A stretch of 64,000 bases of DNA from Pseudomonadota bacterium. GTDB lineage: Bacteria; Pseudomonadota; Gammaproteobacteria; Burkholderiales; Rhodocyclaceae. The position numbers and the translations under genes were made by a program. The stretch covers positions 391,050 to 455,049 of the forward strand of contig JAFEDK010000008.1 of the NCBI GenBank assembly GCA_018241665.1, in the 5' to 3' direction. Below are positions 38,651 through 45,355 of this stretch, in pieces. Every line of letters begins with the position of its first letter. The stretch's first letter is position 1. Below the pieces are notes generated by a model. That model was given only the letters and a program-made list of their open reading frames with translations, made no database searches and was not told where the DNA came from.

Positions 38651-38720
38651 TGGGGGCTGGCCTGTGGGGGCTGGCCTGTGGGGGCTGGCCTGTGGGGGCT
38701 GGCCTGTGGGGGCTGGCCTG
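38651..38720. repeat. Five perfect tandem 14-mers TGGGGGCTGGCCTG (VNTR) abutting REP doublet 2
   Basis: Copies start at 38651, 38665, 38679, 38693 and 38707. Confidence 0.95.
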
Positions 38721-38786
38721 TGGGGGCGAATTCATTCGCCCCCAGGTGCTCACCCGGAGTCCCTGGGCGAATGAATTCGCCCCCAC
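38720..38786. repeat. REP doublet (REPIN-like) 2
   Basis: Perfect 22-bp inverted repeat GTGGGGGCGAATTCATTCGCCC (38720-38741 / 38765-38786) with a 23-nt spacer; same left arm as doublet 1. Confidence 0.92.
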
Positions 38787-41095: not shown

Positions 41096-41171
41096 TGCTT
41101 GCGTCCTCGTGACCGAAAAGGACGCAGCCTAGCGGCCAAGGCGCAACGACGCAATCGGGGCAAATGCGCGC

Positions 41172-42317
<1,146 letters not shown>

Positions 42318-42498
42318 ACCCTTCTCCCTGTCGATTGACGTCAGCCACCAGCATGCCGTGGCTGAGGCCCGGCCGCCACCGGCCACGGCAACCAGCCCAT
42401 CACGTGACATCGTCATTGTTTTTACTGCCACCGGCATCTATCTTGGACGCGAGGGCCACGCAGTCGTGCGACGCCCCGCCCACCGAGGAGACAGCATC

Positions 42499-43410
42499 AT
42501 GGCTGAACAAGCCCTCGCCACGCGCCTGATCGGCAGCAGCTACCTGAATGTCGAAGGCGACATCCTGCCGCTGGTGGATTACACCCTGCCCGACATCAGC
42601 TGGTCGATACACGAGCCCGGCAGCGCACTGCCAGGCTCGCGAAGCGACATCCAGATCGGCGAAGCGGCGCTCGGCAAGCTGGTCATTTCCGTGCAACCAC
42701 CCGCCTTCCCGCCGCTGACGAAGTGGGTGCATGAACTGACCGACGGCGGCCATCGCCAGTTCGACCTGGAAGTGCTGCGAGCAGATCCCGACGGCAACAT
42801 CCAGGAAGGCGTCCGGCTGTCAGGCTGCGTGCTCACCGAACTGCACTTTCCGCCCTGTGCCGCTACCCAGAAGGATGCCTACGTAGTCCGGGCCGTCCTG
42901 CAACCCGAACGGATTGCGGCCCTCCCGTCCGGTTCCCTGAAGAAGCAGCCCATCGGTACCAAGCAGCGTCCCTGGCTGGTCTCCGGCTTCAGGCTCAGCA
43001 TCGACGGACTGCCCACCGGCAGCATCTCGAAAATCGATGGCATCGACCTGATTCGCGACATCGCAAGCCGCAGGGTCGGGGAGCTCCGCGAGCCGCTGCC
43101 CTACTACGGCATCGCCCGCTGCTCGCCCCTCGTGCTGACGATCGGCGGACGGGACTACCCGGCCTGGCGCGACTACGCCCTGAAGCGGCTCACCGAGGGA
43201 ACGCCCGCCAGTGCGCTGGCGGCCAGGCTGGCCTTCCTCGATGCCAGCCTCAAGAAGGAACTGGGCAGCCTGCAGTTTTCGCTGGCCGGCCTGGCCGGCT
43301 TCCAGTTCGCTCGCGCCACCTCCCGCGGAGACGAGGCGGCGGGCCTGCAGGGCATCGCCCGCCTGCCAGTCCAGGACATCAAGCTGGAGGTCGTGCCGCC
43401 CCAATCCTAG
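42499..43410 (+). CDS. Hypothetical protein resembling two tandem phage/eCIS tail-tube (T4 gp19-like) domains
   Basis: GAGGAG RBS, 303 aa. Two roughly 140-aa halves: YLNVEG...LTKWV...LSGCVLTELHFP..AATQKD...LQPE and FRLSIDG..ISKIDGI...VGELRE...LVLTI...W...FLD...KELGSL. Recognised by motif memory only. Confidence 0.6.
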   Translation: MAEQALATRLIGSSYLNVEGDILPLVDYTLPDISWSIHEPGSALPGSRSDIQIGEAALGKLVISVQPPAFPPLTKWVHELTDGGHRQFDLEVLRADPDGNIQEGVRLSGCVLTELHFPPCAATQKDAYVVRAVLQPERIAALPSGSLKKQPIGTKQRPWLVSGFRLSIDGLPTGSISKIDGIDLIRDIASRRVGELREPLPYYGIARCSPLVLTIGGRDYPAWRDYALKRLTEGTPASALAARLAFLDASLKKELGSLQFSLAGLAGFQFARATSRGDEAAGLQGIARLPVQDIKLEVVPPQS

Positions 43411-43479
43411 CCTCGGGCACAGCGCACCATCGCCAGCCGCGCCGACGCATCCGCTACACTCCGCCGGTCATCCACCGAT

Positions 43480-44427
43480 ATGCGCTTTACACCCATGTCC
43501 TACGCCCCATTCATCAAGGAGATCGGCCGCGGGCCGAAAGGCTCCAAACCCCTCACCATCGACCAGGCCGAAGCTCTGTTCGGCGACATGCTGGACGGCC
43601 GCGTGCCTGACCTGGAACTCGGCGCCATCATCCTGTCGATGCGCATCAAGGCCGAGTCCACCGACGAACTGCTGGGCTTCCAGCGCGCCCTCGACGCACG
43701 CACGGCCCACGTCCAGGTCCCGGCCGGCCCACGCGTGGTCGTGCTGCCCACCTACAACGGCGCCCGCCGGCAAGCCAACCTGATGCCCCTGCTGGCCCTG
43801 CTGCTGGCACGGGAAGGCATCCCGGTGCTGATCCAGGGTCGCCACGACTTCGACAGCCGGGTCAGCCCCTTCGAGCTGCTGGCCGCCCTCGACATCCACC
43901 CGGCGGCGAGCCTCGCCGAGGCGGAAGCCCAGCTCGCCGAACGGCATCTGACCTGTCTGCCACTGGAAACCCTGGCGCCGGGTCTGGCCCCGTTGCTCGC
44001 CCTGCGCCCCCGCCTCGGCGTGCGCAACAGCGGCCACACCCTGGCCAAATTGCTCGATCCGGCGCCGGGCCACAGCGTGCGGGTCGCCTCGATGACCCAC
44101 CCGGAGTACCTGGAACGGATCCACCAGCACCTGGTCGCCACCGGCGGCGTGTCCATGCTGCTACGCGGCACCGAGGGCGAAGCTTTCGCCAATCCGCGGC
44201 GTCGCCCGCGGCTGGAAGTGTTCGTGAACGGCAGCGCGCAAATCGCCTTTCCGGCGGAGGAAGGTGGTGCGCCGCCGGTCGAAGGCCGCGCCGACGATCC
44301 GGAGGTCGCAGCCAACGCCACGCTGGTCCGCACCATGCTGGCCGGTGAAGTGGCGATACCGCAGCCCATCCTCGATCAGGTCAGTGCCCTGCGCGAGCTC
44401 AGCCGCGTCCCTCGCACCCCGGCCTGA
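43480..44427 (+). CDS. ybiB: DNA-binding protein YbiB (glycosyltransferase family 3 / TrpD2 fold)
   Basis: IKEIGRGPKGSK.L, LELGAIILSMRIKAES..EL.GF, PTYNGARRQANL.PL, LGVRNSGHTLAKL, RGTEGE. The start may be 43495. Confidence 0.88.
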   Translation: MRFTPMSYAPFIKEIGRGPKGSKPLTIDQAEALFGDMLDGRVPDLELGAIILSMRIKAESTDELLGFQRALDARTAHVQVPAGPRVVVLPTYNGARRQANLMPLLALLLAREGIPVLIQGRHDFDSRVSPFELLAALDIHPAASLAEAEAQLAERHLTCLPLETLAPGLAPLLALRPRLGVRNSGHTLAKLLDPAPGHSVRVASMTHPEYLERIHQHLVATGGVSMLLRGTEGEAFANPRRRPRLEVFVNGSAQIAFPAEEGGAPPVEGRADDPEVAANATLVRTMLAGEVAIPQPILDQVSALRELSRVPRTPA

Positions 44428-44557
44428 CCCCAGACGGGACGCCGGCTTCGTTGACCTTTCGCCACCCCGTGCTTAAATCCAAGGGCCATGCCAAAGCAAT
44501 GCAGCGGGCTCCCCGCCCCCGGCATGGCTCAACCGAGATGAGAGAAGGGGAACGATC

Positions 44558-45355
44558 ATGGGCAAGAAAGCCCTGTGCATCGGCATCAACGACTACCCGG
44601 GCACCCAGAACGACCTGAGCGGCTGCGTCAACGACGCCACCGACTGGGCCGCAGCACTCGCCGCGCGTGGCTTCGCCGTCACCAAGCTGCTCGACGGCCA
44701 GGCCACCAAGGCGGCGATGGTCAGTGCAATGACCGACCTGATCGGCGGCGCGGCCAAAGGCGATTCCATCATCATCACCTACTCCGGCCACGGCACCTGG
44801 GTGCCGGACCAGAACGGCGACGAGCCCGACGGCCGCGACGAGGGCCTGTGCCCGTGGGACATCGGCTCCGGCAACGTGCTGCTGGACGACGAGATCGCGC
44901 CGATCTTCACCCACCACGCCACCGGCGTGCGGGTGGTGCTGATCTCGGACAGCTGCCATTCCGGCAGTGTCACCCGCGGCAACTCGCTCGATCTCGACCC
45001 GGGCCTGCCCCGCGCCCGTTTCCTGCCCCCCGAGGCGTGGATGAAGGCCGCCGACCTGCCCGCCCCCCGCGTCGCCAAGCTCCCCACCTCGGGCGGCTTG
45101 TCGCGCAGCGGTGGCGACCTGCTGCTGGCCGGCTGTACCGACAGCCAGTTCAGCTGGGACACCAGCTTCAAGGGCCGACCGAACGGTGCCTTCACCTACT
45201 ATGCGCTGAAGGCGCTGGCCTCGCTGCCGGCCTCCGCCAGCTACCAGGACTGGTTCAAGAAGATCACGCCGGGATTCCTGCCGACCAACCAGCTGCCGCA
45301 GAACCCACAGATCTTCGGCACCCGGACGGCCCGCTCCTGGAAGGTGTTCGCCTGA
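44558..45355 (+). CDS. Standalone caspase-family (peptidase C14, metacaspase-like) protease
   Basis: KALCIGINDY, LSGCVNDA, catalytic dyad motifs YSGHG and SDSCHSG, LLAGC..Q.S.D, NGAFTY, PQNPQ. Confidence 0.9.
   Translation: MGKKALCIGINDYPGTQNDLSGCVNDATDWAAALAARGFAVTKLLDGQATKAAMVSAMTDLIGGAAKGDSIIITYSGHGTWVPDQNGDEPDGRDEGLCPWDIGSGNVLLDDEIAPIFTHHATGVRVVLISDSCHSGSVTRGNSLDLDPGLPRARFLPPEAWMKAADLPAPRVAKLPTSGGLSRSGGDLLLAGCTDSQFSWDTSFKGRPNGAFTYYALKALASLPASASYQDWFKKITPGFLPTNQLPQNPQIFGTRTARSWKVFA

Follow-up and report, generated by a model that had tools for sequence, protein, structure and literature searches.

Tail-tube proteins are viewed as working only within a sheath-baseplate machine or a phage tail. 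Those of the extracellular contractile injection systems (eCIS; Afp1, Pvc1, Alg1 and Cis1), like gp19 of T4, consist of one domain of ~150 aa. Chains with two tube domains are also on record: T5 pb6 has a duplicated and fused tube domain and forms trimeric pseudo-hexameric rings (PMC5717097), the fused double-domain tail tube protein (TTP) of P74-26 likewise forms a trimeric pseudo-hexameric ring (PMC10034513), and the gp27/VgrG hubs, with two tube-like domains per chain, assemble as trimers with pseudo-six-fold symmetry (cited in PMC5717097). Here we examined a 303-codon open reading frame (ORF) at 42499-43410 (plus strand, stop codon included) in a 64,000-nt stretch of contig JAFEDK010000008.1, referred to below as the window. 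Its 303-aa product, P0001, joins two tail-tube-like domains of gp19/Afp1 ancestry in one chain. With about even confidence we read it as a tube module put to new use, a ring or scaffold independent of sheath-driven injection and not a part of the lattice of the genome's eCIS.

Two fused tube domains in P0001

The original prediction had taken the protein to be two-halved and tube-like, of the gp19/Afp type. An AlphaFold2 (AF2) model computed from an alignment of 24 sequences (pLDDT 83.4, pTM 0.82) contained two beta-sandwich-plus-helix units joined by a low-confidence linker. Tube domain 1 (residues ~10-146; 42526-42936, plus strand), a beta-sandwich with a helix at residues 72-81, is the more diverged half. 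The variable inter-domain linker (residues ~147-158; 42937-42972, plus strand) lies in blocks of pLDDT 70-72 (residues 141-160). Tube domain 2 (residues ~159-300; 42973-43398, plus strand), a beta-sandwich with a helix at residues 217-233, is the half best conserved relative to the wider family, and most phmmer alignments to remote homologues span residues ~74-280. When the profile of residues 10-146 was aligned to that of residues 156-300, hhalign returned a probability of 96.8% (E = 2.4e-10, 129 columns). The halves are therefore a true internal duplication.

In full-length structural alignments against the PDB, Foldseek matched P0001 to double-domain tail tube proteins (TM 0.45-0.63, E 1e-8 to 4e-4), the best match being 8xan_A (E 1e-8, TM 0.63), with further matches to the T5 chains 7qg9_G, 9iny and 5ngj (5ngj_A) and to 8ed0_A of P74-26. 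Single-domain matches comprised the tubes of PVC, Afp, AlgoCIS and the Anabaena and Streptomyces contractile injection systems (CIS), T4 gp19 and Hcp. Those to Pvc1, Afp1, Alg1 and gp19 had a probability of 1.00 and a target TM of 0.60-0.76, and those to Hcp structures were weak (E 2e-3 to 2e-2). VgrG and gp27 were absent from the top structural matches. A structure search of BFVD gave the same picture as the PDB. The AF2 fold, the Foldseek matches and the hhalign duplication thus agree with the predicted two-halved architecture; the AlphaFold monomer and Foldseek comparison that had been suggested as its check found both the beta-sandwich tube fold and the duplication.

Assignment from sequence was less direct. 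P0001 had no match in Pfam, NCBIfam or PHROGs even at E ≤ 10, nor among PDB sequences, and it falls below every cut-off of the curated PF06841, TIGR02241, CIS1 and CIS5 models. Its closest relatives (P0009-P0013) are likewise below the curated cut-offs of PF06841-type models. A word-indexed search returned only seven close relatives (69-90% identity), and an exhaustive phmmer search yielded 747 representatives at E ≤ 1e-3, 96 of them at E ≤ 1e-10; almost all are ~300 aa long. PF06841 (Phage_T4_gp19) was matched by 54 of the 61 remote homologues scanned, in several cases over two stretches; the homologues also matched TIGR02241 and the CIS1/CIS5 inner-tube models, and just 5 of the 61 matched the TssD model (PF05638, Hcp of T6SS, the type VI secretion system). 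Searched against the PDB, the family profile with the target as master (A3) matched Afp1, Pvc1 and the CIS tube of Streptomyces (E 5.5e-10 to 2.2e-7), positions 8-142 being the part that aligned to them. Similarly, the N-half profile of the family was matched by hhalign to tube1 of the genome's own eCIS (88%, E 3e-6). Of the comparison with PF06841/Hcp that the original prediction had proposed, the direct Pfam match of P0001 failed, and homology to the PF06841 tubes emerged from transitive and profile searches.

Each half of P0001 shares the beta-sandwich-plus-helix fold of the eCIS tubes and gp19, with a Foldseek target TM of 0.68-0.76, whereas those are single-domain proteins and P0001 carries two fused domains within 303 aa and has no adjoining sheath or baseplate genes. 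The likeness to T5 pb6, the P74-26 TTP and the SH-Ab15497 major tail protein (5ngj, 8ed0 and 8xan, respectively) extends over the full length, but identity in the structural alignments is only 8-13%, and unlike these siphophage tubes P0001 comes without tape measure, phage module or immunoglobulin-like decoration. Because its domains belong to the contractile-system (gp19/CIS1) lineage, the fusion in P0001 most likely arose independently of that in the siphophage tubes. In comparison with the gp27/VgrG hubs and with orphan hcp/vgrG products, P0001 lacks an OB-fold or needle part and an accompanying effector gene.

Neither the tube fold nor the formation of a trimeric ring from fused tube domains is in itself new. 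In the explanation that we propose, the gene would yield a cytoplasmic, stand-alone protein without signal peptide, in which two inner-tube domains of the CIS/gp19 lineage, homologous to each other, are fused. By analogy with the solved fused tubes, three copies would close into a pseudo-six-fold ring, the trimeric pseudo-hexamer that the original prediction had suggested, and such rings may stack.

A large double-tube family, mostly apart from sheath genes

P0001 is a very divergent, Zoogloea-restricted branch of a large family of ~300-aa double-tube proteins. The family comprises at least 747 clusters at 50% identity, and in its tree the Zoogloea gene has a long branch of its own (stem 0.62, support 99). 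A metagenome scan recovered at least 496 family loci, mostly from soil, and IMG/VR contributed one. No family match was found in 50,697 GenBank phage records (queries P0001 and P0160) or in 72,556 plasmid records (query P0017).

The genes around family members were surveyed in a scan of 141 flanking genes at 43 loci. The commonest flanking family was PF06841 itself, as tandem paralogues (10/141 genes), and next came methyltransferases and proteins of the AAA or R3H type; the 25 commonest families included none of sheath, baseplate or spike proteins. Two family loci (L012 and L013) likewise had no tail genes. Sec/Tat N-terminal signals were counted in about 70-75 of 153 members (~half) by a home-made heuristic based on the alignment-anchored N-terminal extension, and Tat models were matched. 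In another phylum 4 of 401 genomes carried the family, in some cases as 2-4 copies; 3 of these 4 carriers had no match to the PF17482 sheath model. From the flanking genes, the signals and the sheath matches we conclude that the family is mostly stand-alone, often exported and sometimes found without a detectable sheath. Since it mostly stands alone and about half of it bears export signals, a tail part has seemingly been put to new use. P0001 itself probably acts independently of sheath machines.

Some members do adjoin a sheath gene. In tblastn searches with the genome's own eCIS proteins, a sheath gene was found immediately upstream in 6 of the 62 loci with ≥400 bp of upstream sequence (~10%). 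This bears out the likeness to fused double-tube proteins of eCIS loci that the original prediction had drawn. The sheath-adjoining members lack signal peptides and most of them group together in the tree. The CIS-embedded relatives (L031, L079, L087, L088, L094 and L105) resemble P0001 in family, length and the lack of a signal peptide; they differ in that they lie directly downstream of a sheath gene, whereas the Zoogloea gene has no such neighbour. In L031 (from IMG/VR) and L094 the order is a short sheath-like gene, the double-tube gene, small ORFs and a second sheath gene, followed in L094 by a single tube gene and VgrG. Here, then, the double tube comes as an additional component of an eCIS that is unusually laid out, with two sheath genes.

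Several findings weigh against a new use apart from injection machines. The ~10% of relatives beside sheath genes show that family members can belong to a CIS. The signal-peptide counts rest on a heuristic, and the sheath-less carriers are metagenome-assembled genomes of uncertain completeness, searched with a single sheath model (PF17482). Ring formation is an argument by analogy only. All Zoogloea carriers of the target have an eCIS, to which the genome studied here adds a T6SS and a second sheath cluster, and a role of the target in trans is therefore still conceivable. Finally, relaxed selection, a truncated copy (L011) and two absences, described below, are also expected of a gene on its way out.

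A wider proposal, that the double-tube family is an unrecognised class of sheath-independent, self-assembling nanotubes or rings descended from contractile-injection tubes, is one that we offer tentatively and consider on the whole doubtful. Under it, the roughly half of the family exported through Sec or Tat would build periplasmic or extracellular tubes, and the others would form cytoplasmic rings serving as scaffold, as chaperone-like carrier or in phage-tail interference. What seems new is that double-tube proteins of the gp19/CIS lineage make up a family that stands alone and is often exported; in the literature on PF06841, TIGR02241 and orphan or domesticated tube proteins we found no description of it. 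The main value lies in this family-level pattern rather than in the single Zoogloea gene. If rings or tubes do form by themselves, a part of phages and injection systems would have been put to new use, and the family would supply protein nanotubes with a building block that is natural and genetically simple. Zoogloea are culturable, floc-forming bacteria, and their copy is a tractable entry to the family: a single cytoplasmic gene with natural presence/absence variants within one genus. As context rather than evidence, a short Phage_T4_gp19 protein is reported to be abundant in an activated-sludge secretome (PMC12019908).

Family members (L032-L111; G662 and G873) are recurrently found beside a multi-domain methyltransferase (DUF7782/DUF7059) and an R3H/SpoIIIAA-like ATPase, and G873 holds four copies of the family.

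Contractile machines elsewhere in the genome

No sheath, baseplate or spike gene was found in the neighbourhood examined, 35-48 kb of the window, the scan for baseplate and PAAR families covering this part rather than the whole 64 kb. The neighbours are unrelated to tails: on the minus strand genes for a GGDEF/EAL protein, a Gly-zipper protein, LEA_2, two NAD-dependent dehydrogenases and GSDH, and on the plus strand a YbiB-like protein, a caspase-like Peptidase_C14 and nitrate reductase. No effector-like gene lies beside the target. Genome-wide, all matches to PF06841, PF04984 and VipB (sheath, tube and TssC) were on contigs other than that of the target. The gene is thus an orphan within the window, as had been predicted. 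The accompanying claim that sheath, baseplate and spike genes are missing holds for the 35-48 kb neighbourhood and does not hold for the genome, which carries an eCIS (C51), a sheath cluster (C6) and TssC (C4).

The eCIS on C51 (~262,900-286,100; L018 7928-18908, L019 12-11101) is a complete system of the Afp/PVC type, with a Pvc16_N cap, sheath, two gp19-type tubes (tube1 and tube5), an Afp7-like CIS_tube, VgrG, gp25, Baseplate_J, a CIS tape measure and an AAA ATPase. A 1054-aa eCIS_core protein from the same locus carries a non-specific endonuclease domain at its C-terminus and is likely a cargo toxin. A second, contractile-tail-like cluster on C6 (~110,700-124,300; L020 4748-18328) has a 476-aa sheath, a PG_binding_1 protein and a gpV-like spike; its candidate tube of 130 aa had no Pfam match. 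Immediately upstream of this cluster are genes for a TIR-domain protein and a 1201-aa nSTAND1-WD40 NTPase, and the cluster may represent a tailocin, the remains of a prophage or a defence island. The T6SS sheath subunit TssC (VipB, 436 bits) is encoded on C4 (258,440-259,348), which makes three kinds of contractile machinery in one genome.

Could P0001 then serve one of these machines from a distance? Orphan hcp/vgrG genes serve the T6SS from outside its main locus, and the target resembles such islands in that a tube-fold protein is encoded apart from the main machine. As an alternative tube, adaptor or cargo-carrier ring, P0001 would act in trans with the C51 eCIS, the C6 cluster or the T6SS. 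The machines of this genome, the eCIS of every Zoogloea carrier and the relatives directly behind sheath genes speak for this role, as does the lack of a signal peptide, which places P0001 where contractile machines assemble. The eCIS, however, already encodes tube1, tube5 and an Afp7-like initiator. An eCIS tube pair was present in 13 of 13 Zoogloea genomes, including two without the target (G124 and G184). Tube1, moreover, evolves far slower than P0001: its identity across genomes was 100, 100, 100 and 97% where that of the target was 92, 73, 75 and 42%, respectively. The full tube set, the occurrence of the eCIS without the target and the constancy of tube1 where the target diverges disfavour a structural (lattice) role inside the resident eCIS. 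Together with the missing effector-like neighbour and the family members in assemblies without a sheath, they leave the service in trans unlikely, though not far-fetched, beside the proposed ring or scaffold independent of sheath-driven injection.

Between Zoogloea clades the eCIS itself differs. The eCIS tubes of G207/G208 (L118 and L119) are only 31-34% identical to those of G000 (L018), with housekeeping neighbours at 80-90%, and the two clades have different eCIS types. Such a difference points to an eCIS that was replaced, or acquired independently, within the genus.

A dispensable gene in a variable chromosomal slot

Sequence reading, orthologues and the ratio of non-synonymous to synonymous change (dN/dS, omega) identify the ORF as a genuine gene. 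The strong ribosome-binding site noted earlier is there (GAGGAG, 42485-42490, plus strand, 8 nt before the ATG). Conservation does not extend to a longer, TTG-initiated frame, which in L006 is interrupted by an in-frame stop 30 codons upstream of the ATG. Translation therefore starts at the ATG, and P0001 lacks a signal peptide.

The target is single-copy in its genome. The P0001 subfamily was found only in Zoogloea/Zoogloeaceae assemblies, the closest record being 92% identical. In 8 further Zoogloea/Zoogloeaceae assemblies an intact orthologue lies at this chromosomal position, and an intact frame of 289-303 aa is present in the window and 9 further assemblies, over a dS of up to ~1. One other genome had the gene in a sample of 200 genomes of the taxonomic family, and none of 400 genomes of the phylum had a full-length member. 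The gene always lies in a slot between the DH2 dehydrogenase and YbiB (window 41096-43479; L002-L011, L113, L114), the content of which varies. In the window clade and L007 the slot holds GSDH plus the target, which runs in the direction of YbiB; L002, L009 and L010 have the target alone, on the opposite strand; L011 has a truncated remnant with only the last ~100 codons; G184 has an unrelated 113-aa ORF in place of the target; and G124 has an empty gap of ~160 bp.

The protein diverges fast. Identity of P0001 across genomes was 92, 73, 71, 75, 42, 37 and 35%, with neighbours there at 80-99%. In the close clade the Nei-Gojobori omega of the target was 0.26-0.36 (upper bound of the bootstrap 95% confidence interval ≤0.48), and that of the neighbours 0.02-0.18. 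The two domains were alike in omega and neither had a sign of positive selection; the linker (omega 0.23-1.05) was the highest of the three parts in most pairs. Substitutions were fewest in two core-strand blocks, columns 111-120 and 131-140, in which none is variable. Codon usage of the target is fully host-like. The target is kept as a protein by purifying but relaxed selection, evolving several times faster than its neighbours. The intact frames and omega, taken with the truncation and the absences, indicate relaxed constraint and dispensability in some lineages; the target is an accessory gene, and the content of its chromosomal slot varies.

These data bear directly on whether the gene is left over from an old CIS or prophage tail, has no present function and is being lost. 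The remnant in L011 and the absences in G124 and G184 would suit such a history, as would an omega above that of all neighbours and a sequence that Pfam models no longer recognise. Yet the frame has stayed intact over a dS of up to ~1, the upper bound of omega stays well below neutrality, two core-strand blocks are invariant, omega is highest in the linker in most pairs, and codon usage is that of the host. We regard a relic as very unlikely. The dN/dS comparison called for in the original prediction, with an omega well below 1, likewise describes no decaying relic in most lineages, one copy being truncated and two absent.

Recent horizontal acquisition was considered for the close clade and rejected, GC content and third-position GC (GC3) being those of the neighbours and dS being comparable. 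Between the two Zoogloea clades dS of the target is ~2 times that of the neighbours, and an old allele replacement between the clades is possible.

A slot with presence, absence, inversion and different cargo, patchy occurrence within the genus and amino-acid evolution 3-10 times faster than that of the neighbours are features that an anti-phage factor might have. P0001 would then be a tube mimic that poisons tail assembly by co-assembling with, capping or sequestering phage tail-tube or tape-measure proteins. PADLOC, however, had no match for P0001, P0009, P0012 or five distant family members, the immediate neighbours are conserved genes of housekeeping type and not a defence island, and omega stays under 1, neither domain giving a sign of positive selection. 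A cytoplasmic decoy would also leave the exported half of the family unexplained. We give such a defence function little credence.

Directly downstream of the target, at 43480-45355, lie the genes for a YbiB-like protein (Glycos_trans_3N only, TrpD2-type) and a stand-alone caspase-like Peptidase_C14, upstream of an assimilatory nitrate reductase. The pair is strongly conserved in all Zoogloea genomes examined (omega 0.03-0.11). The target might be read as the first gene of a three-gene module with this DNA-binding protein and protease, since in the window clade the three are on the same strand with short gaps and no terminator, and PADLOC has a caspase model. Synteny largely refutes this. The pair is 79-98% identical in all Zoogloea examined regardless of the target, and it persists where the target is on the opposite strand (L002, L009 and L010), truncated (L011) or absent (G124 and G184); its low omega also stands against the 0.26-0.36 of the target. 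The module was rejected as most improbable. Co-transcription of the target with the YbiB-like gene is possible in the window clade only: the gap between them (43411-43479, plus strand, 69 bp) is without a terminator-like hairpin.

Upstream, an intergenic region of ~180 bp (42321-42498) separates the target from the divergent GSDH gene and is presumed to hold the promoter. A promoter and terminator scan of 42200-43600 found no sigma-70 consensus and no terminator. Alignments of GSDH orthologues start at residues 25-56 of the long GSDH ORF. GSDH was considered as a functional partner and rejected as a coincidence: a GSDH gene lies upstream of one distant homologue (L013), but it is not a recurrent neighbour of the family and is missing from the slot in the second Zoogloea clade. 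Farther upstream in the window, between the Gly-zipper lipoprotein gene and the LEA_2 gene, 38651-38727 consists of a perfect 14-bp tandem repeat, TGGGGGCTGGCCTG, in 5.5 copies.

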